This document shows, one piece after another, positions 2,439-54,925 of a DNA stretch of 64,000 nt; position 1 is the first letter of the stretch, and each line of letters opens with the position of its first letter. The DNA comes from a virus. The position numbers and the translations under genes were made by a program. The stretch is from positions 9,509 through 73,508 of the IMG/VR virus record IMGVR_UViG_3300043427_002369. One strand, given 5' to 3'. The notes under the pieces were generated by a model. That model was given only the letters and a program-made list of their open reading frames with translations, did no database searches and had not been told where the DNA came from.

Positions 2439-5400
2439 ATGAAGAAAGCAAGGATTAACATTAGTAACATACTAAAAAACCAACTTCCTAATTTTGTAAA
2501 GGAAGAATATCCTTTGGTTGAAGAGTTATTCTCTGAATATTATAAAGGTCAAGAATATCAAGGTGGAATTTTAGACATACTTCAAAATATTGATCAGTAT
2601 ATCAAATTAGACAATAATACTAATTTGACTGAAAGCACTAATATTGTATCAGATATTAGTTTTGCAGATGCTGTAATACCTGTTACTAACACCAGTGGAT
2701 TTCCAGATCGCTATGGTTTGATTGAGATTGATTCTGAAGTTATTCTTTATAAGTCAAAAACACAGAATTCATTCGTTGATTGTGTAAGAGGTTTTAGTGG
2801 AATTACTTCTTATGATAATTCTTTAAATTTTGAACAAACTATTGCTGAAAATCATGTAGATGGATCTGTTGTTAAAAATTTAAATATTTTATTTCTGAAT
2901 GAGTTTTTCAACAAAGTTAAAAAGCAATTCGCACCTGGATTTGAGAATAGAAATTTCTTTAAAGATACATCTTCTAAAATTGACCTTAATGAAAATGTTT
3001 TCATTAAACAACTGAAAGATTTCTATTCATCTAAGGGAACTGATGATTCGTTTAAAATATTATTCAAATCACTTTTTAATGACAATGTTGAAATTATCAG
3101 ACCTAGAGATTTTTTAATTCGTCCATCAGATGCTCAGTATAGAGTTAATAAGGAATTAATTATTGAAGCAATAGAAGGAGATCCTTTGGATCTTGTAGAT
3201 ACTACAATCTTCCAAAATCCTTTAACTATAAATGGTGAAGACTTTATTTCATATGCTTATGGAACGGTAAATAAGGTTGAAACTATTTCTAGAAAAGACA
3301 AGACTTATTATGCAGTCAGTCTAGATTTTGATTATAATAAGGATATTAACCTAAAGGGTTCTGTTTATGGTGAATTTGTAATTGGAGCAAAAACATTTAT
3401 CACCGATAAAGTTTCTGAGCAGTCTACAGTAATCACAGTAGACTCAACGTATGGATTTCCAGAAACTAATGGAGTTTTAAGAGTCACATTTGATGATGGT
3501 CTAATCTCTACTATCTCGTATCAAAGAAAAAATCTTAATCAATTTATAGGTTGTTCCGAAATTAATAGAGAAATTCCCCAAGGAAATTCTATTTACTTGA
3601 ATTATTATTGTGAAGGTGGAAATACTGTAGGGAATGATGAAAATCCTATTAAATTTAGAATTACAGGAGTATTATCAGAAGCAACAACATCTGATGATTC
3701 TCACTATATTGTAGAAGGTAATAGAATTAATCTAAGAACTTTAGGAAAGGATATTCGAGAACCTTCTTTTAATAATTGGAAATTTAATATTGCTCCAAAA
3801 TATAATGTTAAAAGTATTATTAAAAATAATACTATCAATAACACTTATTTAATTGAAGTATATGATGAGCATATATTTTATAAAGGAGACAGTGTAAAAC
3901 TTATTTCATCAAGACCTCAATTAGTTCCCGGAACTGATGATCTAGGATTTTCTGAATTTTTTGGCGATGTTCAATCTGTAGATGGAAAGTTCTCTTTTAC
4001 TTGTGCCATTAATTTTGATTTAGATACTACTTTAGTATATGAAGTTGAAAGAGAAATTAATAAATTTAATTTTAGTTATAATTCTTCTATATCAGATTCA
4101 AATAATAATTACGTAACAGATGTTCAAAATGTTTATAGAGACTCTGAAGGATCTCTATATGTCGCTTCTCAGTCATTGCCAACATATACTAATGATGTTT
4201 TACCAATTACTGATGACACTATTGTATTATCATCGAGTGTTTATATAAGCGAAGAACTTAATCAGAACGATCCAGAAAAAATTGATAAGATTTTAAACAT
4301 TGGAAGGCATACCTTTAAGACAGGCGATGCGGTTTATTATCAATCCGGAGATAATAATAATAAATTAAATTTATCTGAAGGAATTTATTATGTTAAAGTA
4401 GTTGGATCTCTTAATAACCCAACTCAAATTAAGTTATCTAGTAGCAGAACTAACATTGATAATAACATTTTCTTAGATGTTAGTTTAAAAAATCCATCTT
4501 TGACAGGTAGTGATAATAAATTATATAAGTCTACAAATGAAATAATTTATTTCCAAAATAGTCTTAAAAATAGTTTAACTTCTTCAAAATTTGAGAAATT
4601 TATTTCTCCAAAGAATTTAATAAAAAAAATTAATAATCCATTAGAAACCAAAGAAAAACAACTGACTTCTCCTGGACAGACTGGAATTTTAGTGAATGGT
4701 GTTGAAATTGTAAACTATAAATCAAATGATTTTATTTACTATGGATCAATTGAAGATATTAAAATTAAATCTCCAGGAAGCGACTATGATATTATAACCC
4801 CTCCGCAATTAAACATTGTTGATAAAAATGGGTCAGGTGCGTCTGCAATTTGTCACATTAGTGGATCTCTCACTAGAATTGATATTTTAAATGGTGGATT
4901 TGATTATGAAAAAACTCCTACCATTGAGATTAGTGGTGGTAATGGTATTGATGCTGAAGTAAGTCCAAATATGAGCACATTTGAGCATTCCATGGCATTT
5001 AGTGCCAAAGAAGGAACCTCTCAAATTAATTTTTCCTCAGATACTATCACATTTAATGTAAGACATAAATTTTATGATGGTGAGGAAATTAAATATGATT
5101 ACACTCAAGTTCCTCTTGAAGGTCTTAGGAAAGAAATTACTTACTATGTTGGAACTGAAGATGATTATTCTGTAAAATTATATGCAACATATCAGGATTC
5201 TATTAAAAAGATCAACCAAATTGATTTAAACTTACCCAATGTATTGGGGACGCATTATCTGATAAGTGTTCAAAAGAAATCTACAATAGGATCTATCAAT
5301 ATTGTAAGGGCGGGAACTGGATATTCAAATAGAAAAACAGTTACTCTAAGTCAAAATATTAATATTTTTTCTAATGTAGTCAATATTAAAAATCATGGGT

Positions 5401-8400
5401 ATCAAACTGGAGAAAAACTAGTATATTCAACAACAGGATCTCCTATTGTTGGTTTAGCAACAACATCCGAATACTTAGCTTATAAAGTCAATGAAGATCA
5501 ATTTAAACTTTGCGAAATTAATAACCAGTCTGAAGATAAAAACTTCTATTTGAGAACAGAACAATTTGTTAATTTTACTGAAACCGGATCTGGAAATCAT
5601 ATTTTTAATTATCCTCCAATTTCAGTTAAAGTTATTGGATCATTTAAAAATAAAAATTTAAGCCCATCATTACTGGAAGCGCAAATTGTACCAGCATTTC
5701 GAGGATCTATAACTTCAGTTTTTGTTGAAAGTGGTGGAGTTGGTTATGGTTCTTCTGACATTATTAACTACAATAGGCAGCCAGATTTTGTTCTAGAAAA
5801 TGGAACTGGTGCCGAATTAAGACCTATTATTTCTCAAGGAAAAATAAGTGAAGTTTTAATTGTAAATGGTGGATCTCAATACACTGCGCTTCCGATAATT
5901 GAAGTTGTTGGATCGGGAACTGGAGCTAAATTACTGCCAATTATATCAAATGGAAGTATAGTTGATATTGAAATAGTTTCTTCCGGTATCAATTATGACT
6001 CCGATGCAACAATTTTAAATGTCAATTCTGCTGGATCTGGGGCTAATTTTGAATTTTCTATTCAATCTTGGAATGTTAATTCTGTCGAAAGGTCAATTCA
6101 GAATGGTAATATTTTAACCAGTGATATTTTCCTTTATGACACTAAGAATGAGTATGATGAGAGAATGACTCAAATCACTCATTTATACGCACCTAGAAAA
6201 CTTCGTGAAAATCTTATTGTTTCCAAGGAAGAAGGTGGTCAAATTTTCTACAGAAAGGATATTGAAAATGATACTAGATTGGATGATTATTATCACTCTC
6301 CTATAATTGGTTGGGCATATGATGGAAATCCAATTTATGGACCATTTGGATATGAAAATCCAGATGGATCTGGATTGACTAAGAAGATGAAGACTGGATA
6401 TGGTTTAAATATCAGTAAACCAAATAGACCAAGTATAAACCTTTTCCCTGCTGGATTTTTTGTTGAAGACTATGATTATATTGGTAATGGAGATCTAGAC
6501 GAATATAATGGAAGATTTTGCGCTACTCCAGAATTTCCAAATGGAACTTATGCATACTTTGCAACACTTGGAGAATTTGATAATGTATTCAGTAGAGATT
6601 ATTTGCGCCCAACCTTCCCATATTTAATAGGAAACTATTATAAATCAACTCCGATTGAATTTAATTTTGATGCTGATAATACTCAAAACACGTTAGTATT
6701 TGAAAATATTAATTTAATTAGAAATACTACACCATATGGGATAATTTCTAAAAACAGTTCTTACAGTTATGCCTTTAATCCAATAGATTATGAGGAACAA
6801 CTTAATAAAATAACTAGAGTTGGTAATGGAAAAATTGATAATATTAATATTATTTCAGGTGGAGAAAATTATAAAGTAGGAGATAAAATCACACTTTCTG
6901 AGGATGAATTTGGAAACAAATCTTATGCTGAAATTACAAAGATTAAGGGTGTCGGAATATCTTCAATTTCAGTAACCTTTAATGAAATTCCATATGTTGA
7001 ATTTGGATCTTCTAGAGACTTTAAAACTATTGTTGGGGTAGCTTCAACTCCACATCAATTAAAAGATCAGGATGTTATTAATATTATAGGATTAAATGAG
7101 ATATTTACAAATAGACAAAAAAATGTAACATCAAGAATAAATGTTTTTACAAATCAATTGTCTATAACAAAAAATGTTGAGCCAAGTTCTGTTACTGGTA
7201 TAATAACAACATTTCAAGTTAGTGGTAATCTGAATGATTATGCTATTAAGCCAAATGACATTTATATTTCTCAAGAAGGAGAAGAGATTAAAATACTGAA
7301 TATTGACCTATCCTCATCTTCTATAAGAGTTAAAAGAGGAGTTGGATTATCAACATATTATTCTGGATCAACTTTAACAGAAAAACCAAGAAGATTTGAA
7401 GTTAGCGCCGTGGAAGCTTCATCTTCAGATAATTTAAATGGTAAAATTTATCCCACTAATAGGGAACTATATTTTAATCCATCAAACTCTGTTGGTCTTG
7501 GAACAGTTGGATTAAGCACTACCATTTTCCTTAATATAGTTCCTTTAAATTATCAAGTTTCAATTGACACCGAAGCAGAAGTTATTATTGGTGTTACTAC
7601 AGTTTTAAGAACGGGATTGATTTTCAATAACCCATTGAATGCTGGACAATTTAAAATTGGCGATTATATCAATTTGGTTGGATCTTCTGACCTTAGTTTT
7701 AATGCAGTTCAAAAGGCAAAAGTTCTTAATGTAGGCATTGGATCGATTGTTGTTGATTATGATTCAACCGCACTATCTGGAATTGGAGTAACTTCTTTTG
7801 TTACTAAATGGGAAGTTAGTGAAATTGGAATACAATCATTGTATCTACCAAATCACAACTTAAAAACTGGTGAAAAAATTACCTATTATGCAAATTCAGG
7901 AACACCCTTAGGAGTTTCTACAGATAAAATATCTTCTTCTTCATTATCTGATGGTAATGAGTTTTATGTTTCTAGTCTTGATCATGATCACATTGGAATT
8001 TCCACAGTAATAGTCGGATTGACGACATCTGGAGAATATTTAAATCCACTTAGTGGGCAAGGATTGCTATATTTTACTTCTTTGGGAAGTGGTTCTTATC
8101 ATAGCTTTAAAACAAATTATAATGTCCAAAGTGGTAAAGTTATTAAAAATGTTGCAAGATTAGCAACTACTAAATCCCCATCATTATTCTTTAATGAAAA
8201 TATTGAAGTTTCTAATGTACCAAAAACAAATAGAACCATTGGTGTAAAGTATAATAAAGAAAATAGAAGATTAGTTGTAAATCCAAAGTCCTTTACCGTT
8301 ATTGATGTAGATACAAATTCTAGTTCTATTTTTATCCCAGATCACAGATATTCTACTGGTGATAAAATTATCCATACGACTGAAGATTTATCTTCTTTAT

Positions 8401-16036: not shown

Positions 16037-17560
16037 ATGTCAGCAATTATAACTGATCAACTTAGAATATCCAATGCTTTGAGTTTTTTGGATAAAATTA
16101 ACAATTCATTAAATTCATATTATGTGTTTTTAGGATTGTCAAATCCAACAGAATACCTTAGCACTTGGGAATCTCTTCCACCATTTCAGCGTGATAATTT
16201 TGATGAAGAGAATAAGTGTTGGGATACTATGTTTTCTTTGAAAAAAATTTCTCCCAGTGATGTTTCTCCAGTTGTTCGAAGAATAAATTGGGAATCTGGA
16301 AGAATATATGATATGTATCGTCATGATATTAGTATTGACAAAAGATCTAACCAAACTCAGGCAACATCTTTATATTCTTCCGATTACTATGTGGTAACAA
16401 AAGATTATAAAGTTTATATTTGCCTTCAAAATGGAACATCACCAGAATCTTTAACTGGAAATCCTTCCTTGGATGAACCAACTTTTACTGATCTTGAACC
16501 AAGAGCAGCGGGGACTAGTGGTGATGGGTATATTTGGAAATATCTTTATACAATTAGACCAAATGAAATTGTTAAATTTGATAGCACAAATTTTATTCCC
16601 TTACCTAAAAATTGGACAACTAATCAGGAAAATGCTGCAGTAAGATTGAACGCATCTTCAAGTGGACAAATAAAGATCATTAATATACTTGAAAGGGGTG
16701 CCAATTTAGGAGCACCTGGTCTTTATCAAAATGTTCCCATAAGAGGAGATGGACAAGGAGCAACAGCGACAATTGTTGTTGGTAGTGATAATACTGTAGA
16801 TAAAATATTTGTATCAAATGGAGGATCTGGATATACTTTTGGAACTGTCGATCTCGAAAATTCAGGTCTATTTCTTGTAGATCCTCCAAAATTTGATGTC
16901 ATAATTCCACCAAAAGGTGGTCATGGAGCAAATATTTACAGAGAACTTGGATCTACTAATATTTTATTATATTCTAGAATTGAAAATGATATTGGAGATC
17001 CTGACTTTATTGTTGGTAATAAAATTGCAAGAATTGGGATTATTGAAAATCCAGAGGCATTTGATTCCACATCAGTTCTATCGATACAAAAAGCAAGTTC
17101 TTTGTATGCATTAAAATTAAAAGAGCCTGGCGCAAGTTCTGCAGTAATTCCTGCAAATATAACGTTCACCCAAACAATAACAGGAGTTGGAACCGCTGTA
17201 GGAAGAGCAGTTTCTTATGATAATGAAACCGGTGTATTAAAATATTGGCAGGATAGATCTTTGTATGGGTATACAAAGGCTGGTGTTTCAACTAATGCTC
17301 CCTATGGATTAGTTCAAAATGCATTTACTGGAGGGACTATTAACGTAGACGCAAATACTATTGAAATTGATGGTGGATTTAGTGGTATATCTACAGTAAT
17401 AAATAATGGTACAGTTTATCTCGGGCAAAATTTTACTAATGGTCTATCAAACCCTGAGGTAAAAAAATATACCGGAAATATAATTTATGTTGATAATAGA
17501 CCATCCATAACCAGGTCTGCAAATCAGAAAGAAGATATCAAAGTCATTTTGCAATTCTAA
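16037..17560 (+). CDS. gp8: Baseplate wedge subunit gp8
   Basis: MSAIITDQLRI start, YKVYICL.NG, DGYIWKYLYTI, and C-terminal IIYVDNR..R..NQKEDIK.ILQF. Confidence 0.92.
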   Translation: MSAIITDQLRISNALSFLDKINNSLNSYYVFLGLSNPTEYLSTWESLPPFQRDNFDEENKCWDTMFSLKKISPSDVSPVVRRINWESGRIYDMYRHDISIDKRSNQTQATSLYSSDYYVVTKDYKVYICLQNGTSPESLTGNPSLDEPTFTDLEPRAAGTSGDGYIWKYLYTIRPNEIVKFDSTNFIPLPKNWTTNQENAAVRLNASSSGQIKIINILERGANLGAPGLYQNVPIRGDGQGATATIVVGSDNTVDKIFVSNGGSGYTFGTVDLENSGLFLVDPPKFDVIIPPKGGHGANIYRELGSTNILLYSRIENDIGDPDFIVGNKIARIGIIENPEAFDSTSVLSIQKASSLYALKLKEPGASSAVIPANITFTQTITGVGTAVGRAVSYDNETGVLKYWQDRSLYGYTKAGVSTNAPYGLVQNAFTGGTINVDANTIEIDGGFSGISTVINNGTVYLGQNFTNGLSNPEVKKYTGNIIYVDNRPSITRSANQKEDIKVILQF

Positions 17561-30689: not shown

Positions 30690-30783
30690 AATACATATGG
30701 TGTTAAATTTATATAATATTAATAATATTTTTGGTGTGGGTTTGACTTGATTATCAAGTTTGTATCTTTACATAGAGGAAAAA

Positions 30784-32676: not shown

Positions 32677-35031
32677 ATGGCAGCACCTATAATTAGGATT
32701 AAAAGATCTTCAGTTCCCGGAAAACGCCCTTCAGTAGAGCAACTTCCATCGGGGGAACTCGCTTTAAATACTTATGATGCTGAATTATTTGTAAGAAGAG
32801 AGCGTTCTGGAATAGGCACTGATGTTGTAAGAGTCGGTGCTGGAGCAACAGTAACAAATATTTTATATGTCACAAAAGATGGAAGCGATACAAACACAGG
32901 AAAAAAACTTGGAGACGCAAAGGCAACCATCAAAGGAGCGATCTCAGCAGCAACAGAAGGAACAGTTATTAAAGTTTCTGCTGGATCTTATGTAGAAAAT
33001 AATCCCATTGAGCTGCTGCCTCAGGTTAGTATAGTTGGAGATAGTTTAAGAGAAGTATCAGTTTCTCCTTTAAATTCTGGACAAGACTTATTTCATGTTG
33101 CTCCGGGAAATTATATTACTGATATGTCCTTTACTGGGACTATGAACTCCGGTTCAGCAATTTGTGCATTTAACCCAAATACAGTTAGATATTTTGATCA
33201 ATCACCTTACATAAGAAACTGTACCAATTTCATTCATAATAGCACTGGTCTAAAAATAGACGGTCAGCACGCTATTGGTAAACTTAAAAGTATAGTAATT
33301 GACTCATTTACTCAATATAATCAAGGTGGTATTGGCGTTTCCATTACAAATGAAGGATATGCTCAGTTAGTTTCTTTATTCACGATTTGTAATGATGTTG
33401 CAGTTTTTTGTGGAAGTGGGGGTGCTTGTGATTTAACAAACTCAAACTCCTCTTTTGGTAACTATGCATTAGTTGCCGATGGAGTAGGTCCAAAAAAATA
33501 TACTGGAATTGTTACTAGTTCTCAATCTGTGAATAGTGACACTTTTGTGATTGATTTAAATGTACCGACATTAAATATAACTTCAGCATTTTATAATAAT
33601 ACAACTGGAATATTAACAGCATATACTTCTTCTGCACATAAGTTTTCTGTTGGGATGGGAGTATCTATTGCTGGTCTTGGATTTACTTGCCAATCTGGGC
33701 CAGGAATTGTTACGTATCCTTCAGGAAATCAGGGGGGTTATGTTTTTAGAGTAAATACTGTTGCTCCTGGTAGATATATTGATTCTTATAACTTAATACA
33801 AGCAAATAGACAAGAAATTATTGATACAGCATATGCGCAAATTGCAATATCACATCCGTTTTTTACAAATCCAAATCCCAATAAATGTAAAAGAGATATA
33901 GGGTATTTGGTCGATGCAGTTTCTTTAGATGTTAGAGACTATACCGATGAGCAAACAATTAAATTTGTAAAAGCATATTTTGACAAATCTGGATTTTTAA
34001 TCGTAAATGGACTTGATGGAGAGACGCAAGAATCAATTACTGCATTTAATAAAGCTAGAGATTTAATGAAACTTGCGATTACTAATAATTTAACAGTAAA
34101 AGATCTTAGTATTACCGCAGACCCAGCAACCGGATCAAATACAAGTCAATCATCTTGCTCAGATGTTAGAACATTTATTGACAATTTAGTTTCTATTGTA
34201 ACAACTCCGATAGGTGAAGGTGATACGAGTTCTTTACCAGCAAATGTTTCTATGGCAAGCACTATTTTTAGTGCATATGTAGGAACTTCTACTTTACCCC
34301 ACACTTATAATTCTGGAGGAACTGTAAAAATTGATGTTGTTAGACCTTTCGATGGGCAAGTAGTTTATTTTGGAGATCTTTATTATACTGTTGGCAGTAT
34401 TTCAGTTTCTGCAGGGGGAACTGGTTATACTGGAAATGCAGATGTTACAATCTCACCACCAGATACTAATTGGGGAGTTCCTGCATCTGCTGTAGCGGAA
34501 GTTAAAAATGGATCAATTGTTGGAATTGAAATGGTTTCTAGTGGTAGGGGATATAGTTATCCCCCATCAGTTTCAATAAGCTCACCTAATGTGGGAATAA
34601 ATACAGCAACAGCTACTGTTAATTTAGTTCCAACTTATTATGTAATTACTTCTTCTACTCCCATTTCCGCTGGTATATGCACTATTACATTGAGTGATAA
34701 TGTTCCTTATGAGGTTGGAGTTGGTACTGCAGTTCCATTTTTTAAACAAAGTAGATTATTAGCTTCTGGACATTCTTTGGAGTATATTGGATCTGGAACT
34801 AATATTGATACGGCCCTTCCTTCAACGGGTGGAGTTCCCATTCAAGACCAGGAAGTTGATATGAGAAATGGTGGTCTTGTTGTTTTTACTTCGACAGATC
34901 AGTCTGGTAATTTTAGAATTGGTGATGGTGTTGTTGTTAATCAGCAAACTGGAACCATTTCTGGAACATTCTATTCTAAGAGTTTGTTTTCATCATTAAC
35001 ACCATTTATTCTAGCATTAGGAGGAGAATAA
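32677..35031 (+). CDS. Structural protein: Mtd-N-like head, beta-helix/pectin-lyase-like scaffold, nested phycobiliprotein-like insert
   Basis: IRIKRS...L.SGELALNTYD; LYVTKDGSD.NTG...ATIKGA...G.YVENNP...VSIVGDSLR; SPYIRNCT; KCKRDIGY insert. Confidence 0.8.
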   Translation: MAAPIIRIKRSSVPGKRPSVEQLPSGELALNTYDAELFVRRERSGIGTDVVRVGAGATVTNILYVTKDGSDTNTGKKLGDAKATIKGAISAATEGTVIKVSAGSYVENNPIELLPQVSIVGDSLREVSVSPLNSGQDLFHVAPGNYITDMSFTGTMNSGSAICAFNPNTVRYFDQSPYIRNCTNFIHNSTGLKIDGQHAIGKLKSIVIDSFTQYNQGGIGVSITNEGYAQLVSLFTICNDVAVFCGSGGACDLTNSNSSFGNYALVADGVGPKKYTGIVTSSQSVNSDTFVIDLNVPTLNITSAFYNNTTGILTAYTSSAHKFSVGMGVSIAGLGFTCQSGPGIVTYPSGNQGGYVFRVNTVAPGRYIDSYNLIQANRQEIIDTAYAQIAISHPFFTNPNPNKCKRDIGYLVDAVSLDVRDYTDEQTIKFVKAYFDKSGFLIVNGLDGETQESITAFNKARDLMKLAITNNLTVKDLSITADPATGSNTSQSSCSDVRTFIDNLVSIVTTPIGEGDTSSLPANVSMASTIFSAYVGTSTLPHTYNSGGTVKIDVVRPFDGQVVYFGDLYYTVGSISVSAGGTGYTGNADVTISPPDTNWGVPASAVAEVKNGSIVGIEMVSSGRGYSYPPSVSISSPNVGINTATATVNLVPTYYVITSSTPISAGICTITLSDNVPYEVGVGTAVPFFKQSRLLASGHSLEYIGSGTNIDTALPSTGGVPIQDQEVDMRNGGLVVFTSTDQSGNFRIGDGVVVNQQTGTISGTFYSKSLFSSLTPFILALGGE

Positions 35032-35377: not shown

Positions 35378-43669
<8,292 letters not shown>

Positions 43670-43670
43670 T

Positions 43671-44102
43671 ATGAGAGAAAATTATACTTACAATTGGGAA
43701 ATACTTTCTATTACCAAAATGAATCTTGAAGATAACAATAATGTAATCTTCAAGATTATATGGAGATTGATTGGAATAGATCCAAATGGTGTAGAGGGAG
43801 TATTTAAGGGATCCACCGAACTAACACTACCAGATCAATTTGATGATAATTTTATCGAATATGAAAATATAACCCAAGAAAATATTATTAACTGGATTCA
43901 GCAGATTTTAAATATGGATGATGTTTATTCTGCTATAGATGATGATATGGAAAAAAATAAAAAGCAGATAGAAATTGTTTTTAATGGACAATATCCTTGG
44001 CAACAAATTACTATAGATCCGACTCCAGTAGATCCATCCACAATATTACATGATGCTACGGGTTTACTCACAATATCACCAGAACAAAGTTTCTCTAATT
44101 AA
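43671..44102 (+). CDS. Hypothetical protein, possible tail-fibre assembly factor
   Basis: ATG 43671 right after the fibre stop; Y.W.I...W...G...FIEYENITQENII.W pattern. Confidence 0.7.
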   Translation: MRENYTYNWEILSITKMNLEDNNNVIFKIIWRLIGIDPNGVEGVFKGSTELTLPDQFDDNFIEYENITQENIINWIQQILNMDDVYSAIDDDMEKNKKQIEIVFNGQYPWQQITIDPTPVDPSTILHDATGLLTISPEQSFSN

Positions 44103-44104
44103 AT

Positions 44105-46144: not shown

Positions 46145-46147
46145 ATA
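46140..46147 (+). promoter_or_regulatory. Late promoter (CATAAATA) overlapping stop codon
   Basis: NATAAATA 24 nt before ATG 46172. Confidence 0.6.
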
Positions 46148-46171
46148 TCATTAGACAATGATTTGAATTAT

Positions 46172-47020: not shown

Positions 47021-47023
47021 ATT

Positions 47024-47788
47024 ATGTTTCATCTTGCTATTGGAACTCCAATGTATGGAGGTCAGTGTACTAGTGAATATACACAATCCGTTTTAAATTT
47101 AACAGAAGCAATTAACACAAGCGGCAATAGAGTAACTTCAATTTTTCTTGGAAATGAGTCATTAATTCAAAGAGGAAGAAATACAATTGCTCACCATTTC
47201 TTAAATACAGATGCCACACATCTGATCTTTATTGATGCTGATATTAAATTCAGACCTGGCGACATCGCTAAAATGATCAAGGCAGATAAAGAATTAATCA
47301 TTGGCCCAGTTCCACTAAAAGGTATTGACTGGGAAAACGTAAGAATGTGTGCTCTTGAGGGAAAGGAAAATCTTTGGAAACAGGGTGGTGTGTTTAACAT
47401 TAATCATCTTGATGGGCATTTTATGCAAGATGAAGAAGAACCTTTTGAAATTAAGCACGGTGGTGGTGCAATGATGCTCATCAAAAGAGAAGTATTTGAA
47501 AGTCTAATTCCACATACGGACACTTACATTAATGGTGGAGTGACAATTCCACAAGGAAAAGAGATTTATAACTTCTTTAGAGTTGAGATTAACGAAGAAA
47601 AACAACTTTTATCTGAAGATTATTTCTTCTGCGAATCTTATAGGAAAATTGGTGGAAAAGTTTGGTGTGCTCCTTGGTTTGATGTGGGGCATTTTGGATC
47701 TTACCTATTCTCAGGTAAGTATTCTGAAACTTTTAAACCAGAAATCACCAAGCCCAAGTCACCGCAGAATATCTTTTCCCAACTGTAA
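47024..47788 (+). CDS. GT-A fold (GT2-like) glycosyltransferase
   Basis: IGTPMYGG, ESLIQRGRN, LIFIDADI (DxD), G.MMLIKREVFE, LSEDYFFC, GHFG; GAGGA RBS. Confidence 0.8.
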   Translation: MFHLAIGTPMYGGQCTSEYTQSVLNLTEAINTSGNRVTSIFLGNESLIQRGRNTIAHHFLNTDATHLIFIDADIKFRPGDIAKMIKADKELIIGPVPLKGIDWENVRMCALEGKENLWKQGGVFNINHLDGHFMQDEEEPFEIKHGGGAMMLIKREVFESLIPHTDTYINGGVTIPQGKEIYNFFRVEINEEKQLLSEDYFFCESYRKIGGKVWCAPWFDVGHFGSYLFSGKYSETFKPEITKPKSPQNIFSQL

Positions 47789-48326
47789 CTTCTTTAACTT
47801 GATGTGGATACATAAAATTACTCGGGAACATAATAATGTCTCCACATCCAAGTTTTACTGCCTGATCTCCCCAGAATACTAACTCACCACCAGTATAATC
47901 ATCATTAAAATTTAAAATGAAACTGAGAACTGGAATTCCTTTTTCGTTACCATCAAATATTGAATGAATATGGTCAAAGTGTTCTCTCATTATTTGACCT
48001 TTTGAATAACGATTAAACCGAATATTGCAAAATTTATTCATAATTTGGCACATTCTTGGAATATCCAAATAAGCAAACTTTGAATTATAAATTGCTCCCG
48101 CTTGAATGACATATGGAGTAAGAACTTGATTCAACTCTGGAGATGCAGTTTGTACATCCAATTCCATCGTTTCTTCGCTACTAGCATTGTTACTAATAGG
48201 ACTATGCCATTGATGGGGGGACCATTGATTTTCCTCTATTTGTTGAATAATATCAACGCATAAATCTTTTGGAATAAATTCTTTTTCCAAATGAACATAA
48301 TCTTTAATATTTTCGTATCTAATCAT
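47745..48326 (-). CDS. 2OG-Fe(II) oxygenase, prolyl-4-hydroxylase-like
   Basis: RY..GQ.MREHFD (HxD), LNDDYTGGEL-like, FPSNFMYPHQV (distal His), GKRYS (RxS). Confidence 0.88.
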   Translation of the reverse strand: MIRYENIKDYVHLEKEFIPKDLCVDIIQQIEENQWSPHQWHSPISNNASSEETMELDVQTASPELNQVLTPYVIQAGAIYNSKFAYLDIPRMCQIMNKFCNIRFNRYSKGQIMREHFDHIHSIFDGNEKGIPVLSFILNFNDDYTGGELVFWGDQAVKLGCGDIIMFPSNFMYPHQVKEVTVGKRYSAVTWAW

Positions 48327-48943
48327 TTTAGTGGAAGGTAAGTTAAGGATTCAATTTTACCAAGAGACTCTGTTTCAAATGTATTAAATGCAAGGCTAAT
48401 TCTTGGAGTTGTAGATACATTTTCAGGGACACCATGATAAAGTGTTGATGGAAATAAAATAAGTTCTCCAGTTTCTAACGGGAGTAAAAATGTTTCTGCA
48501 TTAAAATTATTATGATTTTTAATGGTGAATGAATACATTTCATTATTTTTGTTTCTAAATTCAATGGGTGGAAGAGTTTTGTTTATTTGAAAATAAAATA
48601 CTCCACTAACAATACTATTAGGATGCCGATGTTCGTGATGTTTTTTTCCATTGTCAGTAATATTTGCCCAAGATTGTGTAATTTTTAATTTATTTGAGCA
48701 TTCGAGGACATCATTAACGTAAAAATTAATTTGAGAATCAATAAATTCTCTGATATTTTTTAGTTGAGGGTTATCTAATAAAAAAGTATCAGAAGATTGT
48801 TTGCTATATATTTTTTGCGTTTCTGGAGTATTTAAATTATATTCTAAACTCTTTACATATTCCAATTCTTCAGACAAATCTTTTTCATATTTTGAAATAA
48901 GAACCGGAATTGGAAATAATTGTAGAAGTTCTCTATTTGACAT
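48323..48943 (-). CDS. Putative 2OG-Fe(II) oxygenase (TIGR02466-like)
   Basis: LFPIPV start, SWAN, HEHRHPNS.VSGVFY, G.LILFPS.LYH.V, RISLAFN; ATG 48943 preferred; ATGA-coupled to next gene. Confidence 0.85.
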   Translation of the reverse strand: MSNRELLQLFPIPVLISKYEKDLSEELEYVKSLEYNLNTPETQKIYSKQSSDTFLLDNPQLKNIREFIDSQINFYVNDVLECSNKLKITQSWANITDNGKKHHEHRHPNSIVSGVFYFQINKTLPPIEFRNKNNEMYSFTIKNHNNFNAETFLLPLETGELILFPSTLYHGVPENVSTTPRISLAFNTFETESLGKIESLTYLPLK

Positions 48944-48965
48944 ATATTTAAAGATACATATAGAA

Positions 48966-48994
48966 ATTATACAATATTCATATTGAATATGCAA
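48966..48994 (-). promoter_or_regulatory. Sigma70-type (early) promoter for the two oxygenases
   Basis: Minus strand TTGCAT-N17-TATAAT, -10 box ending 22 nt upstream of ATG 48943. Confidence 0.6.
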
Positions 48995-49024
48995 ATTTTG
49001 AGGTTTAATTCATTATAAATCAAT

Positions 49025-49032
49025 GATAAATA
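49025..49032 (+). promoter_or_regulatory. Late promoter (GATAAATA)
   Basis: NATAAATA upstream of the second collagen fibre gene. Confidence 0.6.
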
Positions 49033-49087
49033 ACTAAAGCATTTTTTAAATTATATTAGTGAGTAAATATCCTAGGAACCGAAGAAC

Positions 49088-52000
49088 GTGGCATATTTAA
49101 GTACTTTACTTGGGGCTAATTTCACTGGAGCACAAGGTACTCAAGGTGTCCAGGGAAGGCAGGGAACTACTGGCACTCAAGGAGCAGCAGGAACACAAGG
49201 ACTTCAGGGAATTCAGGGATCTTTAGGTCCTCAAGGAATTCAGGGAATTACAGGATCTCAGGGAGCAACAGGAACCCAAGGTCTTCAGGGAATTCAGGGA
49301 ACTATAGGTCCTCAGGGTATTCAGGGAACTATAGGATCTCAAGGTATTCAAGGACGTCAGGGTATTCAGGGAACTATAGGTCCTCAGGGTATTCAGGGAA
49401 CTATAGGATCTCAAGGTATTCAAGGACGTCAGGGTATTCAGGGAACTACAGGATCTCAGGGAACTACAGGTGCAACTGGTGCGACTGGATCTCAAGGAAC
49501 TACAGGAACTACTGGAACTACTGGTGCGACTGGATCTCAAGGAACTATAGGATCTCAAGGAACTGCAGGCGCGACTGGCGCGACTGGATCTCAGGGAACT
49601 GCAGGATCTCAAGGAACTATAGGATCTCAGGGTATTCAAGGTGTTCAAGGTATTCAAGGACGTCAGGGTATTCAGGGAACCACAGGAACTACAGGTTCTC
49701 AAGGAACTACAGGAACCACAGGAACTACAGGTTCTCAAGGAACTACAGGAACCCAAGGAACTACAGGAACCACAGGAACTACAGGTTCTCAAGGAACAAC
49801 TGGATCTCAAGGAACAACTGGATCTCAAGGTGTTCAGGGTCGTCAAGGGACTACAGGTGCATCAGGAGAAACTGGTGCTACTGGTGCTCAAGGAACTACA
49901 GGTTCTCAAGGAATCCAAGGAATTACAGGTCCAGTAGCAGGTTCCGCAAATCAAGTTGTATATAAAGACGGATCTAATAACCCAACAGGTTCTAGTAATT
50001 TAACTTTTAATGGAACTGCACTTTATGCAAATCAAATTACTGGTCCAGCGGAACTTGTAATTGATCCAACGTCTATTGGAGATAATACTGGAGCAGTAAG
50101 AATTAAAGGTGATTTATATGTTGATGGTTCAAACTTCATAGTCAATTCATCAACAATTGAGTTGGCAGATTTTGTGGTTGGTATTGCATCTACAGTAGCA
50201 ACAAATGCACTTCTTGATGGAGCTGGTATTGGTATTGGATCCGTAGGAATTCGCAAGACAATTACTTGGAATAATACTGCAACCGCATTAACATCGAGCG
50301 AAGATTGGAATCTTGCTTCAGGTAAGCAATATAAGATTAATGGAACTTCGGTATTAACTTCAACAACACTAGGTTCTGGAGTTGTCAATTCATCTTTAAC
50401 TTCCGTTGGAACATTAGGTCTATTAAATGTTACTGGTATTGTTACTGCATCTAGATTTGTTTCTAATGTGGCAACAGGAACTGCACCATTCACAGTCTCT
50501 TCAACGACTCTTGTATCTAATTTAAATGCCGATTTACTTGATGGGTTAAATTCCGCATCGACAAACACAGCATCAACTATTGTAGCAAGAGATGCTTCAG
50601 GTAACTTTAGTGCTGGCACTATTAGTGCTTCGTTGACAGGTTCTGCTTCAAACAACGTGTTGAAAGCAGGCGACACGATGACAGGTCAATTGATTTCAAC
50701 TCTTGCAAATAATACTGCAACTGGTGGTGGTCAAATATACCTGAATGGGGCAAATGGAAATAGAATTGATTTTAATACAAATGGTGTTGCTGCTCCGACA
50801 ACTACAACAAGAAGTGCTGGAACTAAGTTAGTTTTATGGCCAGGACTAAGTGCAACTAATGTTGATTATGCACTTGGTATTGATAGTTCTACTATGTGGT
50901 ATTCTGTTGATACTACTTCAGCACAATTTAAGTGGTTTGCAGGAACTAGTAATGTCGCCACTTTAACTGGCGCCGGAAACTTCAGTGCGACTGGAAGTAT
51001 TACTGGAAATACAATCGTAAAATCTGGAGGAACTTCGTCTCAGTTCTTAAAAGCAGATGGATCTGTAGATACTAATACCTATATTACTTCTGCTTCTGTA
51101 GGCAATGGAACTCTGTCTTTAGCAGTTTCCGGAACTGGTCTTTCTGGTTCAGCATCATTTACTGCAAACCAAAGTGGAAATACAACTTTTACAGTAACAT
51201 CTAATGCAACTTCAGCAAACACAGCATCTGCAATAGTTGCTAGAGATGCTTCGGGTAACTTTACTGCGGGAACAATTACTGCAAATTTAACAGGAAATAT
51301 AACAAATACAGTTACAGGAACTAATTCAACTGCACTAGTTTATGGTAATATGGCAGATAACGACCAATTTAGAATTTTAATTGGCGGAACTGCTTCTAAT
51401 GCTGGATATGTTGAAATTGCAACAGCAGATGACGGAACTGAACCAATTTATGTAAGACAATATACGGGCGTATTTACAACACTTGCAAGAACTGCCACAC
51501 TACTTGATGGAAGTGGAAATACTAGTTTTCCTGGCAGTGTTACAGGAAATACAATCGTAAAATCTGGAGGAACTTCTTCTCAGTTCCTAAAAGCAGATGG
51601 ATCCGTTGATTCTAATACTTATATTACTTCAGCTTCTGTAGGTAACGGAACTCTTACTTTAGGAGTTTCTGGAACTGGTCTTTCTGGTTCCGCATCATTT
51701 ACCGCAAACCAAAGTGGTGCTACCACATTCACTGTAACTTCGAACGCGACTTCAGCAAACACAGCATCTGCAATAGTTGCTAGAGATGCTTCTGGAAACT
51801 TTACTGCTGGAACTATTACTGCTACAAGTTTCTCAGGTTCCTTAGCAAACACATTAACTTTAAATACCTCAGGAACTGGATTATCTGGATCCACAACATT
51901 TAATAACTCTGGTGCAGCAACATTTACCGTAACATCTAACGCGACTTCTGCAAACACAGCATCTGCAATAGTTGCTAGAGATGCTTCCGGAAACTTTACT

Positions 52001-54358
52001 GCTGGAACTATTACTGCTGCAACTTCATTTGTAAAATCTGGAGGAACTTCATCTCAGTTCTTAAAAGCAGATGGTTCTGTTGACTCCAATGCTTACATTA
52101 CTTCTGCTTCTGTAGGCAATGGAACTCTGACTTTAGCAGTTTCCGGAACTGGATTATCTGGATCTGCATCATTTACGGCAAACCAAAGTGGTGCGACAAC
52201 ATTCACAGTAACCTCTAATGCAACTAATGCAAATACAGCATCTGCAATAGTTGCTCGTGATGCTTCGGGTAACTTTAGTGCTGGCACAATATCAGCAGGA
52301 TTATCCGCTTCTGCAGACGCGGCAATTGTCAATCAAAACAACGGAAACTCTGCTGCTTGGTATGGTAGAATTCTTTCTAAAAACTCAACCAGTGATAAAG
52401 CATCATTCTTAGGAACTTATGGTAGTATTGCTGGAGTTTTTGCACATAATAATGCTCTAAGTGCTTGGACGGATTTATATGTGAATACCGTTGATGGTGG
52501 AAGCAATGGTGGTACAGTAAGAATGCCCCCCTCCGTCTTAGTCAATGGAAGCCAAGTTTGGCACGCTGGTAATGATGGTGCAGGTAGTGGATTAGATGCC
52601 GATTTAATTGATGGTATTAATTCCACTGGTTTATTCAATAATATGGGAGCTCTTCACTCTACAAGAAGTAGTTTTGATGCCACAACACCTTCTTATGATT
52701 TTGGTTTTAGATTTGTTCAAGGAAGCACCAATGGTCCAGGAACTTCTGGATCTCAATTCTATTCTTGGTATATTGGTCTAGGTTCTGAATATGCAGCGAC
52801 TGGTGCTGGTTCTTATGGAGCAATGTTTGCTGTTGATAGAAATGTCACCAACCCATATTTAACAGTTAGATATAATGAAGGAAATTCTTTCACTTCCTGG
52901 TATAAGATCAGAGCAGGTGCTGCGGACCAAGTAATAAATTCAGTTACCTTTAATAACGGTGGTGCTGGTGGTGCATCTGGTAGCACATTTAATGGAAGTG
53001 GTGCTTTAACAGTTTCTTATAACACAATCGGTGCATCTCCGTTAGCAGGTTCCACTAGTTTAACCACCACTGGTACTGTAACTACTGGTACTTGGTCTGG
53101 TTCTTTTGGTGCTGTATCTGGTGCTAACTTAACTAGTCTTACTGCAGGAAACTTAAGTGGAACAATACCTTCAGCAGTATTAGGTAACTCAGTTCACTTC
53201 ATTGGCACTACTTCTATTGCACTAAACAGAGCATCTGCTGCTCAAACTTTAACTGGAGTAAATATTGATGGCAGTTCTGGTTCTTGTACTGGTAATGCTG
53301 CCACAGCAACTAGTGCCGACCAAATAGACGGAATTGCATTTAGAAATTCAAATAGCACATCAGCGATTAGTGCTCCAGATACATTAGATAGCAATGGAAT
53401 TGGATATGTAACTAATATATCACTTTATAGCCAAACTGACGGTGCTTTATATGCACAAGCATATAGTGCAGCTTGGCAACATCAGATATATGGAGATTAT
53501 AGAACTGGTCAAATAGCAATAAGAGGTAAAAATAATGGAACTTGGCAGGCTTGGCGTAATGTTCTCGATAGCACTAATTACACTACATATGCTGCTGCAA
53601 GTAACCATACACACGGTAATATTACCAATGCTGGTGCTATTGGTTCTGTAGCAAACCTACCAATTATTACAACAACAAGTGGTGTATTAACTACTGGTTC
53701 ATTTGGTTCAGCAGCAAATACTTTCTGTCAAGGTAATGATTCTCGTCTAAGTGATACTAGAAACACAACTAATAGCATTACGTTTAACAATGCTGGTGCT
53801 GGGGATGCCAGCGGAACAACTTTCAATGGATCCACCGCAAGAACAATTTCATACAACACAATCGGCGCATCTCCGTTAGCAGGTTCCACTAGTTTAACTA
53901 CAACTGGCACCGTAACTAATGGTACTTGGTCTGGTACTTTTGGTGTCGTATCTGGTGCTAACTTAACTAATTTGACTGCAGGAAACTTAAGTGGAACAAT
54001 ACCTTCAGCAGTATTAGGTAACTCAGTTCACTTCATTGGTACTACTTCTATTGCACTCAATAGAGCATCTGCTTCACAAAGTTTAACTGGCGTAAGCATT
54101 GATGGTTCTTCAGGTTCTTGTACTGGCAACTCTTCTACTGCAACAACCTTACAAACAACAAGAACTATTTGGGGTCAAAACTTTAATGGTAGTGCCAATG
54201 TTTCTGGTGCATTGACTGGAGTAACTAATATAACTGCTACTGGCAACATTGCTGCCGATGGTGCATTCCGTGCAGAGTCTTCAGACTCTACACAAAGATT
54301 TGATATTTACTATAATGAGACTACTGATAGTCTTGATTTTGATTATCTCACCGCATAA
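49088..54358 (+). CDS. Second collagen-like tail fibre with repeated shaft modules and knob-like domains
   Basis: GTG start; 90 Gly-X-Y triplets; IVARDASGNF.AGTI, QFLKADGSVD, WHAGNDGAGSGLDADL.DG and W..W knob-like segments. Confidence 0.88.
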   Translation: MAYLSTLLGANFTGAQGTQGVQGRQGTTGTQGAAGTQGLQGIQGSLGPQGIQGITGSQGATGTQGLQGIQGTIGPQGIQGTIGSQGIQGRQGIQGTIGPQGIQGTIGSQGIQGRQGIQGTTGSQGTTGATGATGSQGTTGTTGTTGATGSQGTIGSQGTAGATGATGSQGTAGSQGTIGSQGIQGVQGIQGRQGIQGTTGTTGSQGTTGTTGTTGSQGTTGTQGTTGTTGTTGSQGTTGSQGTTGSQGVQGRQGTTGASGETGATGAQGTTGSQGIQGITGPVAGSANQVVYKDGSNNPTGSSNLTFNGTALYANQITGPAELVIDPTSIGDNTGAVRIKGDLYVDGSNFIVNSSTIELADFVVGIASTVATNALLDGAGIGIGSVGIRKTITWNNTATALTSSEDWNLASGKQYKINGTSVLTSTTLGSGVVNSSLTSVGTLGLLNVTGIVTASRFVSNVATGTAPFTVSSTTLVSNLNADLLDGLNSASTNTASTIVARDASGNFSAGTISASLTGSASNNVLKAGDTMTGQLISTLANNTATGGGQIYLNGANGNRIDFNTNGVAAPTTTTRSAGTKLVLWPGLSATNVDYALGIDSSTMWYSVDTTSAQFKWFAGTSNVATLTGAGNFSATGSITGNTIVKSGGTSSQFLKADGSVDTNTYITSASVGNGTLSLAVSGTGLSGSASFTANQSGNTTFTVTSNATSANTASAIVARDASGNFTAGTITANLTGNITNTVTGTNSTALVYGNMADNDQFRILIGGTASNAGYVEIATADDGTEPIYVRQYTGVFTTLARTATLLDGSGNTSFPGSVTGNTIVKSGGTSSQFLKADGSVDSNTYITSASVGNGTLTLGVSGTGLSGSASFTANQSGATTFTVTSNATSANTASAIVARDASGNFTAGTITATSFSGSLANTLTLNTSGTGLSGSTTFNNSGAATFTVTSNATSANTASAIVARDASGNFTAGTITAATSFVKSGGTSSQFLKADGSVDSNAYITSASVGNGTLTLAVSGTGLSGSASFTANQSGATTFTVTSNATNANTASAIVARDASGNFSAGTISAGLSASADAAIVNQNNGNSAAWYGRILSKNSTSDKASFLGTYGSIAGVFAHNNALSAWTDLYVNTVDGGSNGGTVRMPPSVLVNGSQVWHAGNDGAGSGLDADLIDGINSTGLFNNMGALHSTRSSFDATTPSYDFGFRFVQGSTNGPGTSGSQFYSWYIGLGSEYAATGAGSYGAMFAVDRNVTNPYLTVRYNEGNSFTSWYKIRAGAADQVINSVTFNNGGAGGASGSTFNGSGALTVSYNTIGASPLAGSTSLTTTGTVTTGTWSGSFGAVSGANLTSLTAGNLSGTIPSAVLGNSVHFIGTTSIALNRASAAQTLTGVNIDGSSGSCTGNAATATSADQIDGIAFRNSNSTSAISAPDTLDSNGIGYVTNISLYSQTDGALYAQAYSAAWQHQIYGDYRTGQIAIRGKNNGTWQAWRNVLDSTNYTTYAAASNHTHGNITNAGAIGSVANLPIITTTSGVLTTGSFGSAANTFCQGNDSRLSDTRNTTNSITFNNAGAGDASGTTFNGSTARTISYNTIGASPLAGSTSLTTTGTVTNGTWSGTFGVVSGANLTNLTAGNLSGTIPSAVLGNSVHFIGTTSIALNRASASQSLTGVSIDGSSGSCTGNSSTATTLQTTRTIWGQNFNGSANVSGALTGVTNITATGNIAADGAFRAESSDSTQRFDIYYNETTDSLDFDYLTA
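49127..49936 (+). repeat. Collagen Gly-X-Y block (90 triplets)
   Basis: Includes an exact 72-bp tandem duplication 49298-49369 / 49370-49441. Confidence 0.93.
51002..52290 (+). repeat. Three dispersed ~90-aa direct repeats (VKSGGTSSQFLKADGSVD...IVARDASGNF.AGTI) plus a partial copy
   Basis: Copies start near 51002, 51542 and 52028; partial copy near 51855. Confidence 0.88.
52937..54130 (+). repeat. Two ~120-aa direct repeats, 834 bp apart
   Basis: 52937-53296 and 53771-54130; 65 bp identical (53141-53205 = 53975-54039). Confidence 0.9.
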
Positions 54359-54372
54359 TATAAATATAAATA
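54359..54372 (+). promoter_or_regulatory. Two overlapping TATAAATA late promoters
   Basis: TATAAATATAAATA immediately after the fibre stop codon. Confidence 0.75.
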
Positions 54373-54392
54373 AATTTTTACTATTCTAAAAA

Positions 54393-54605: not shown

Positions 54606-54610
54606 ATGCA

Positions 54611-54925
54611 ATGACGGAAGAAATGCAACCTGGTATATCATACCCAGTTATTACATATACTGTTGGTGATTATGTTGAAGGTGATAATTCTGTAGAAGTC
54701 ACCTACACGAATAGTCAAGGATTTATCTACAAGAGAATGGTCAATATTCCATATCTAGAAATTGGACAATATGAAGAAGGTGAAAGTTCTATTGACCAAC
54801 CATACTTTCAAGAAATTCTTGAAGGGCAATTGATGGGAGTTATTAATAAAGCAAGAATGGGTCTTATTACTTTTATAGATCCAAATGCACCAACAGAACC
54901 AGTAGGAATAGGAACGACTTCATAA
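54611..54925 (+). CDS. Hypothetical acidic protein
   Basis: 104 aa; GAGGGAG RBS; ends EPVGIGTTS. Confidence 0.75.
   Translation: MTEEMQPGISYPVITYTVGDYVEGDNSVEVTYTNSQGFIYKRMVNIPYLEIGQYEEGESSIDQPYFQEILEGQLMGVINKARMGLITFIDPNAPTEPVGIGTTS

Follow-up and report, generated by a model that had tools for sequence, protein, structure and literature searches.

A recurrent glycine-containing word in the giant protein gp7 and other virion proteins of a T4-like cyanomyovirus

In the tail-fibre adhesins gp37 and gp38 of T-even phages, glycine-rich motifs and “His boxes” delimit variable segments and are thought to act also as recombination linkers at the DNA level. Glycosylation of mycobacteriophage virions has reportedly been described by Freeman in 2023. 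Fibres of Bdellovibrio form trimeric β-helices, the edges of which are capped by loops with the consensus V-G-G/N-pi-X-X-P-X-X-X-L (Caulton et al., 2024; PMC10769870). Among viral glycosyltransferases (GTs), A197 “possibly glycosylates” the capsid protein (B345) of Sulfolobus turreted icosahedral virus (STIV), and the acceptor of A197 is unknown according to a review (PMC10551542), while mimivirus R699 is a collagen glucosyltransferase by the title of PMC9546862. Here we analyse a stretch of 64,000 nucleotides (the window; positions 9,509 to 73,508 of IMG/VR virus record IMGVR_UViG_3300043427_002369) in which the five-residue word [VIST]G[IVL][GAS][ST], the strict word, recurs in virion proteins. 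Its open reading frame (ORF) map, together with Pfam and PHROGs, identifies this stretch as the part of a T4-like cyanomyovirus genome that holds the structural module.

An original prediction, made from the letters of the DNA alone, considered the word a possible modification sequon or docking tag scattered over proteins of unrelated folds. The best explanation of our results is that it is not one signal spread over unrelated proteins and that it constitutes a compact structural element instead. Its main carrier, gp7, belongs to the giant baseplate proteins of marine cyanomyoviruses, which are uncharacterised and probably shape host recognition.

Enrichment and conservation of the word in gp7

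For all 32 ORFs of the window that were scanned for the strict word, 1,000 within-protein shuffles served as null, and for gp7 order-1 and order-2 Markov nulls of 300 runs each were used in addition. Nine of the 32 ORFs have at least one copy, so that to speak of most virion proteins is an overstatement, and 24 of the 45 strict matches come from gp7 (Table 1). In this protein, 1.21 copies are expected and none of the 1,000 shuffles reaches 24. The excess also survives the order-1 (2.7 expected, at most 9 in any of 300 runs) and the order-2 Markov null (7.8 expected, at most 15). If the order of the residue classes is permuted (120 permutations), the true order ranks first in gp7, with 24 matches against a median of 3, and yields 21 matches in the other 31 ORFs pooled (median 8, maximum 26). 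In an unbiased scan of 5-mers in a reduced alphabet, hGhGo is the top word of gp7. The 17 other non-collagen virion ORFs together hold 12 copies where 2.24 are expected, again a number that no shuffle attains. The five Gly/Thr-rich fibre ORFs are not enriched, as their 9 copies (7.58 expected) are reached by 345 of 1,000 shuffles. Nine enzyme or other non-virion ORFs contain no copy, with 0.19 expected, a zero of such low power that it says nothing about a contrast with virion proteins. Relative to shuffled proteins, enrichment is thus seen in gp7 and in the pool of other non-collagen virion ORFs, but not in the Gly/Thr-rich fibres. The excess of the word is real in gp7 and modestly real in the other non-collagen virion proteins.

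The words quoted in the original prediction are mostly found where it placed them. In gp7, VGLGTVGLSTT occupies amino acids (aa) 1685-1695, IGIATTTIAGIGIT is found at aa 3147, VGIGTTVVGISS at aa 4338, and the terminal VGYST at aa 4515. TGVGT, AGVST, and SGIST of gp8 occur at aa 382, 415, and 449, and VGITT of gp13, IGIGS and VGFGT of gp14, and the C-terminal EPVGIGTTS of the 54611 protein are in place as well. Only the protein starting at 35036, also listed as a carrier, has neither a strict nor a relaxed instance.

All 24 strict sites of gp7 lie between aa 1004 and 4498, and their conservation was followed in a MAFFT alignment of the best 120 of 811 proteins that a whole-length search retrieved at E ≤ 1e-10 (1502 candidates scored). 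Each of these 120 homologues carries 10-33 strict copies (median 23.5), where about 1-1.9 are expected (median 1.6). For 17 of the 24 window sites, at least 80% of the 119 other proteins retain the glycine at position 2; in the same alignment, conservation averages 65% over all gp7 glycines and 42% over all positions. In the cells formed by the 17 conserved sites and the 119 homologues, position 2 is glycine in 93%, position 3 is I, L, V, F, Y, or M in about 92%, position 4 is G, S, A, or T in 84%, and position 5 is Thr or Ser in 85% (Thr 63% and Ser 22%). Judged by this conservation, the gp7 word is under selection, as had been proposed. The other seven sites are particular to the lineage of the window, and three of these sit in insertions (aa 1690, 1765, and 4129).

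Codons differ between the 24 sites, and those for the glycine at position 2 (GGA 13, GGT 6, GGG 3, and GGC 2) are used at near their overall frequencies. Such codon variation indicates that the signal resides at the protein level. With no conserved nucleotide word under the gp7 sites, a DNA-level signal such as a recombination linker or a promoter was rejected. The idea of a C-terminal tag was rejected too, since the tail of the 54611 protein is missing from the sole homologue found and the VGYST end of gp7 reads ...NY in most homologues.

Lineage limits, shared modules, and fibre repeats

The closest named relatives of the window by gp8 identity are S-SM2 (57%), S-B43, S-CAM9, Sf-CH5, and ACG-2014f; at the DNA level, an 8-kilobase query matches two records only, covering 3%. 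Within this group gp7 is rich in the word (S-SM2, 29 copies vs. 1.6 expected; S-CAM9, 19 vs. 1.4; ACG-2014f, 15 vs. 1.1; Sf-CH5, 26 vs. 1.8), whereas the gp7-like giants of P-SSM3 (2 vs. 1.6, counted in a 4788-aa portion), S-RSM4 (0 vs. 0.8), and ACG-2014d (0 vs. 1.5) are poor in it. These word-poor giants align with the window gp7 only over parts that hold no conserved words. Whole records were scanned on both strands with a DNA pattern for [VIM]G[LFIMV]GT, the reversed pattern serving as control. Forward plus reverse matches, with those of the control in brackets, amount to 25+0 (2+1) in S-SM2, 17+0 (0+0) in S-CAM9, 12+5 (4+1) in ACG-2014f, 15+1 (0+1) in Sf-CH5, and 15+1 (1+1) in S-TIM5, and to 1+0 (3+0) in P-SSM3, 0+0 (0+1) in S-RSM4, 3+0 (0+1) in ACG-2014d, 0+0 (1+0) in T4, and 2+5 (1+1) in LR756503, a 735-kilobase uncultured phage. 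Twelve of the 25 matches of S-SM2 fall into a separate fibre island, in fiber, tail fiber-like, and hypothetical proteins beside a 2-oxoglutarate (2OG) oxygenase. The word is therefore lineage-specific, as predicted, being abundant in the first five phages and near zero in P-SSM3, S-RSM4, ACG-2014d, and T4; that it might be an ordinary turn of all T4-like orthologues is ruled out by the absence of pattern matches from T4 and the 0-3 matches in S-RSM4, P-SSM3, and ACG-2014d.

The gp7-like giant of P-SSM3 has an over-represented word of its own, HTFVSA[ST], with 6 copies against 0.05 expected between aa 2468 and 3153 of the portion analysed, which suggests that family-specific words are normal for these giant proteins. 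As its copies sit in plainly homologous tandem repeats, it is not the equivalent word that other clades had been suggested to use, and in the giant of S-RSM4 a reduced-alphabet scan finds no word that reaches 6 copies.

Many instances of the word outside gp7 belong to recognisable modules. Searches with blastp and phmmer reveal cross-matches among gp7, gp14, gp8, the 32677 fibre, and the VrlC-like protein over modules of about 70-110 aa. Residues 181-357 of gp14 match gp7, gp8, and fibre PHROGs, and the PHROG of gp14 is in turn matched by aa 747-843 of gp7 and aa 205-268 of gp8. The “GxGY” module, ...G-x-G-[AST]-x-A-x-A...N-x-G-x-G-Y..., is common to the 32677 fibre and gp14, and its start is marked by both gp14 words as well as by the gp7 sites 3742 and 4176. 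Within gp7, phmmer on chunks detects several internal repeat families besides the YHYH domain (aa 1284-1377). One of them, the “HxFxTG(D/E)” module, occurs in six copies (aa 624, 876, 986, 1806, 1969, and 3129) without a Pfam match; it opens with H-x-[FYL]-x-[TD]-G-[DE]-x-[IV]-x-[YH] and closes near ...YYV...KL..., and three of the six copies hold the word at an equivalent place (aa 1004, 1824 in relaxed form, and 3147). A Gly_rich_2 domain is also common to the VrlC-like protein (aa 1711-1934) and a 588-aa protein encoded at 54935-56701 (aa 88-304), with a phmmer E-value of 2e-17.

Fibre repeats form another such context. In the 30760 protein, the words are spaced by 29-30 aa in a tandem unit L-N-V-[ST]-G-[IV]-[GA]-T-F (L-x-V in looser form), which S-TIM5 gp127 bears four times (LNV[ST]G[IL][SA]T); phmmer of the 30760 protein against PDB sequences gives no match. 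In the 35390 fibre, which ends in a Peptidase_S74 domain (Pfam, aa 2664-2718, E 8.1e-15), the words at aa 762 and 1593 lie within a repeat G-x-VG[IV]GT-T-x-P-x-x-x-L-D-[LV]-x-G, and the copy at aa 32 has no Pro. Similarly, 13 of the 17 strict sites of S-TIM5 gp126-gp129 are part of a ...G-x-VG[IL]GT... unit, and 11 of these 13 have Pro at +3 of the Thr. HMMER aligns the 35390 repeat to the Bdellovibrio fibre chains 8OML (E 0.0016), 8ON4 (E 0.0036), and 8OL4 (E 0.13). The homology of GxGY modules and fibre repeats means that shared ancestry can explain the spread of these words outside gp7. The assertion that the carriers have unrelated folds and no common ancestry is thus not borne out: common modules link gp7 to gp8, gp14, the 32677 fibre, and the VrlC-like protein, and the fibre words lie in homologous repeats.

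The genes concerned follow each other in the order gp25, gp6, gp7, gp8, VrlC-like protein, gp13, gp14, gp15, gp16, fibre island, and gp17. The island comprises the 30760, 32677, 35390 (collagen-like and S74-chaperoned), and 49088 fibres. Genes for two 2OG-Fe(II) oxygenases, a small GT, and an FkbM methyltransferase protein also come before gp17.

Table 1. Features of the window that carry the strict word or bear on its interpretation; “a vs. b” gives observed and expected copies.
Feature	Position in window	Strand	Remarks
gp7 “baseplate wedge initiator”, 4521 aa	2439..16004	+	phrog_2885 “baseplate wedge subunit”, Pfam YHYH; 24 strict sites
gp7 strict sites 1-12 (starts; each ends at +14)	5448, 6951, 7032, 7341, 7491, 7506, 7731, 7992, 10848, 11118, 11496, 11877		
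gp7 strict sites 13-24 (starts; each ends at +14)	12579, 12627, 13089, 13662, 14454, 14739, 14823, 14964, 15450, 15471, 15669, 15930		
gp8 baseplate wedge	16037..17560	+	2 strict sites (17180, 17381), 2 vs. 0.13
VrlC-like giant structural protein, 2779 aa	17567..25906	+	2 strict sites (18794, 19310), 2 vs. 0.84, alone not significant
gp14 neck protein with C-terminal extension of “GxGY” modules	27129..28535	+	2 strict sites (27693, 28083)
Fibre-like protein (30760)	30760..32343	+	3 strict sites (31303, 31393, 31480)
Tail-fibre protein (32677), phrog_17885	32677..35031	+	2 strict sites (32806, 34714)
Collagen-like fibre (35390) with C-terminal S74 chaperone	35390..43669	+	6 strict sites, not above composition
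Island glycosyltransferase	47024..47788	+	phrog_1574, weak GT2 match
2OG-Fe(II) oxygenase	47745..48326	-	
2OG-Fe(II) oxygenase	48323..48994	-	
Second collagen-like fibre (49088)	49088..54358	+	3 strict sites, 3 vs. 2.0, not above composition
104-aa protein (54611) with C-terminal EPVGIGTTS	54611..54925	+	one-off word at tail

Glycosyltransferase genes and collagen-like fibres

A conserved GT-like gene (265 aa, phrog_1574) is situated just upstream of the window, beside gp25 (G000 7685-8482), and the island GT is its paralogue with 23-27% identity. The conserved copy is 72-85% identical in S-SM2, S-CAM9, and ACG-2014f, whereas their gp7 is only 27-35% identical to that of the window. Among five records searched for the gene, two contain it, and the complete records of P-SSM3, S-RSM4, and ACG-2014d lack it. 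Within the phage collection, 102 records have the GT-like gene and 94 this type of gp7 (Synechococcus 84/84, Prochlorococcus 6/6), the surplus consisting mainly of S-TIM5-like phages. Its identity is 72-93% in these 102 phage records and in more than 600 IMG/VR stretches. In most relatives it keeps its position upstream of gp25, and in S-CAM7 it lies about 100 kilobases from gp7.

The family of this protein comprises 2193 representatives at E ≤ 1e-3. In 65 of its sequences, D108 of a D-S-D motif is invariant, and S109 and D110 are conserved in at least 90%. The family profile matches STIV A197 (E 7e-8); a phmmer search with the single protein against PDB sequences finds no match. An AlphaFold model (predicted local distance difference test, pLDDT, 92.4) shows a GT-A fold, for which Foldseek returns 137 PDB matches at E ≤ 0.001, those listed being glycosyltransferases; the best of them are human COLGALT1, A197, mimivirus R699, the glycosyltransferase domain of LH3, and GalNAc-transferases. 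The product of the conserved gene is thus a predicted GT-A glycosyltransferase. Of 12 GT homologues that were scanned, two are joined to TPR repeats, and a fusion with an FkbM methyltransferase was seen once. A homologue of the latter kind, P0154 (857 aa), hints that an FkbM protein and a phrog_1574-type GT may act in one pathway. The window itself encodes an FkbM-domain protein of 828 aa with a C-terminal DUF6445 at 58405-60891.

The sequence CTAAATA precedes the start of the GT-like gene by 43 nucleotides (L029 7642). Words of the type xTAAATA, putative late promoters of the T4 type, are depleted in the window (TATAAATA, 5 copies vs. 9 expected; CTAAATA, 3 vs. 19). Six copies occur on the plus strand (16013, 28400, 30682, 32362, 54359, and 54365), shortly upstream of the starts of the virion genes for gp8, gp15, 30760, 32396, and 54393, the last with two copies.

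All five genomes with a close copy of the GT-like gene have 15-25 matches to the word pattern, and all four without it have 0-3. Since the GT-positive T4-like phages are nearest relatives by gp8, this co-occurrence amounts to about one event plus S-TIM5. Moreover, LR756503 encodes a phrog_1574-type GT with 34% identity and shows no excess of VGIGT. An alignment of gp8 gives a divided answer: two columns (589 and 636) show the word in five GT-positive relatives and its replacement or deletion in three GT-negative phages, whereas column 418 has the reverse pattern, in that two GT-negative phages and S-CAM9 carry the word there and the window lacks it. The total strict counts of gp8 do not differ between the two groups.

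Collagen-like sequences offer a further view of these enzymes. Only genomes with the GT (S-CAM9, ACG-2014f, LR756503, and that of the window) contain runs of at least eight G-X-Y triplets, and the 35390 fibre matches Pfam Collagen with an E-value of 1e-203. Such runs are absent from S-SM2 and Sf-CH5, and S-TIM5 has a single match on the reverse strand. Their absence from S-SM2 and Sf-CH5 means that collagen is no full explanation for the conserved GT copy. The two collagen-like fibre genes enclose the island GT and the two adjoining 2OG-Fe(II) oxygenase genes, and, by analogy with mimivirus, the arrangement of 35390-54358 with 46163-48994 suggests a candidate collagen-modification cassette for hydroxylation and glycosylation of fibres. 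From the modelled fold of the paralogue and the neighbouring genes, collagen would be a more obvious substrate for the island GT than VGIGT. A literature search on virion glycosylation in cyanophages gave no report of it among the papers listed.

Two side observations concern the collagen-like genes themselves. LR756503.1 contains about 3100 overlapping windows of eight G-X-Y triplets (342 forward and 2757 reverse), which corresponds to very large collagen-like genes. Within the collagen-like fibre gene of the window, long ORFs in other frames extend over 37835-39181 (minus strand, 448 aa) and 41226-42899 (plus strand, 557 aa); most likely, they are by-products of the GGN-rich repeat and not genes.

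A proposed compact structural element and its alternatives

We tentatively prefer to regard the word as a structural strand/turn element of lineage-specific β modules and fibre repeats, an interpretation to which we give slightly less than even odds. In this case x-G-(I/L/V/F)-(G/S/A)-(T/S), often followed by another T, would be a compact element of β-rich virion modules. Its invariant glycine might permit a backbone turn or bulge, or else present a flat surface that can pack closely, the hydrophobic side chain at position 3 would be buried, and the Thr or Ser could start or cap a strand. A hydrophobic residue at position 3 with tiny residues at positions 2 and 4 fits a strand that has one buried and one tight face. 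The word comes from three sources: one gp7 family, through its lineage-specific extension (aa ~1000-4521); fibre repeats of the forms G-x-VGIGT-x-x-P-x-x-x-L-x-V and L-N-V-[ST]-G-[IV]-[GA]-T-F; and the GxGY and HxFxTG(D/E) modules, which have been shuffled between, or multiplied within, gp7, gp8, gp14, and a fibre. For the numerous gp7 sites outside any detectable repeat, a structural role is what we infer. Much of the spread of the word is thus due to shared modules and known fibre repeats, which corrects the idea of one signal. Where it persists in spite of deep divergence (27-35% identity), as at about 17 sites, it marks residues that matter for the fold or for a partner.

Several observations weigh against this interpretation. 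An AlphaFold model of gp7 aa 3700-4521, built from a 29-row alignment, is of moderate quality only (mean pLDDT 70.3), and the DSSP states at its 11 strict or relaxed sites are heterogeneous. Sites 3742 and 4176 are just before or at the start of a strand, 4338 and 4345 are in mid-strand and in the turn of one long hairpin, 4129 ends a strand, 4411 is in a short strand, 4006, 4101, and 4106 are in loops, 4498 is in a helical turn, and 4515 is at the disordered end. In favour of the structural reading, ten of the 11 are in folded regions (pLDDT blocks of 66-87), and the exposed loops in which the word had been placed find no support in this mixture of states. A Foldseek search with the whole multi-domain model of 822 aa finds no PDB match at E ≤ 0.001. 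With hhalign, profiles of ±45 aa (up to 120 homologues) around the 24 gp7 sites were compared in 268 pairs of sites at least 60 aa apart, and just three non-overlapping pairs among them are in or near register at a probability of at least 80%: 2894/3020 (98.4%), 1004/3147 (97.3%), and, roughly, 3742/4338 (82.5%). Three further pairs are homologous yet out of register, and most share the word alone, with the proviso that very diverged small β domains could escape detection by hhalign; high scores for 4345/4411, 4338/4411, 1690/1765, 1685/1765, and 4101/4176 reflect overlapping windows and not repeats. Detectable internal repeats thereby account for only a minority of the gp7 words. Most gp7 sites are not accounted for by detectable homology, and one common local structure is not demonstrated. 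None of the 24 sites matches the fibre-repeat profile beyond the word itself (hhalign probability ≤17%), and at 458 sites of the gp7 family there is no enrichment of downstream Pro or Leu, which rules out that gp7 words are degenerate fibre repeats. At these 458 sites, from 20 gp7-family proteins, flanks are unconserved except for Thr at +5 (38%). Lineage-specific insertions, in gp7 at aa 1690, 1765, and 4129 and in gp8 at alignment column 589, again bear the word. The giants of sister clades are equally β-rich and have 0-2 copies against 0.8-1.6 expected, so that the word is no generic property of such proteins. Finally, the word co-occurs genome-wide with the conserved late GT-A gene. All these observations would equally be expected of a short recognition motif.

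Such a motif might be a sequon for O-glycosylation, or another modification, by the phrog_1574 GT-A or its island paralogue, with gp7 and some fibres glycosylated on Thr or Ser. We consider this unlikely, although the evidence for it is varied. The word is short and conserved in position, with non-homologous contexts around it; its Ser/Thr acceptor is maintained in 85% of the cells, which a structural role explains equally well; pattern counts follow the GT-like gene in five genomes against four; and the gene, far better conserved than gp7 across relatives, has record tallies that match those of the gp7 type. It is preceded by CTAAATA like late genes of the window, its nearest structures are protein-modifying enzymes (COLGALT1, the LH3 domain, R699, GalNAc-transferases, and STIV A197), and two of 12 homologues are fused to TPR repeats. 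However, the co-occurrence is equivalent to about one evolutionary event plus S-TIM5, where the words sit in ordinary S74-type fibre repeats, and the same repeat is found in the solved Bdellovibrio fibres; these proteins are said to have been produced in E. coli. Judged by the closest folds, the acceptor would be hydroxylysine of collagen, and collagen-like fibres and 2OG oxygenases adjoin the island paralogue. Furthermore, a strand conformation of the word would put Thr5 on the same side as the buried position 3, the sites occupy folded and not disordered regions, and the word is not in excess in the jumbo phage, whose GT is 34% identical. That one cyanomyovirus clade, together with S-TIM5-like phages, uses the conserved late GT-A to decorate its fibres and some 17 or more conserved x-G-h-s-T sites of gp7 is improbable; if true, phages that infect the dominant phototrophs of the ocean would possess a virion O-glycosylation system that reads a defined sequon.

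Another possibility, which we likewise judge unlikely, is a docking or assembly strand whose flat glycine face pairs by β-augmentation with a virion protein or an assembly chaperone, for example in attaching fibre N-termini to gp7, a protein that in T4 is the baseplate hub for gp6, gp8, and gp10. It would agree with an invariant glycine on the face opposite the hydrophobic residue, with a word that gp7 and the fibres have together in some lineages and lack together in sister lineages, and with two copies (aa 14 and 32) at the N-terminus of the 35390 fibre, but neither of the supposed terminal tags (54611 tail, VGYST end of gp7) is conserved, and several words lie inside intramolecular hairpins of the AlphaFold monomer model. 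Mere composition, that is, chance in proteins rich in G, S, T, V, and I, is very improbable as a general account. It is accepted for the Gly/Thr-rich fibres, in view of the 345 of 1,000 shuffles, and holds for single matches such as the 54611 tail, and an order-2 Markov model alone yields 7.8 copies in gp7. For gp7 and the pooled non-collagen virion proteins it is ruled out, as no shuffle attains their counts, the true class order is first of 120 in gp7, the sites are conserved in 119 homologues, and sister-clade proteins of like composition have 0-2 copies.

For the preferred reading, a structural element, comparison with known systems is instructive, as it is for the GT genes. Like the A197 system of STIV, the window lineage has a small viral GT-A encoded with structural genes, and the phrog_1574 late GT-A family next to collagen-like fibres and 2OG oxygenases is a testable case for collagen-type modification of fibres. 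In contrast to what a sequon in the window word would require, the nearest characterised GT-A enzymes act on hydroxylysine of collagen and not on Thr in V-G-I-G-T. A literature search on VGIGT and variant words retrieved no phage paper that mentions the word. With the words of T-even adhesins it shares that it is short, contains glycine, is conserved between variable stretches, is lineage-specific, and occurs in virion proteins of the receptor side. Unlike these, its codons in gp7 differ by site, which makes a role at the DNA level unlikely, and the sequences are unrelated. The closest known counterparts of the window fibre repeat are the S74 or “MAT” fibres, represented by Bdellovibrio Bd3182, Bd2133, and Bd1334 (PDB 8OML, 8ON4, 8OL4, and 8OND). 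The gp7 sites differ from them in lacking Pro and Leu and any match to the fibre profile, and the published consensus is shorter than VGIGTxxP by one residue in the stretch from VG to P, the likeness being one of sequence. Within the fibres themselves, aa 734-794 of the window fibre align to 8OML and 8ON4 over ...NG(N/S)VG(I/V)G..P...(L/M)D(L/V).G, the 35390 protein has a C-terminal Peptidase_S74 as S74-type fibres do, and the fibres of S-TIM5 share the VGxG..P unit.

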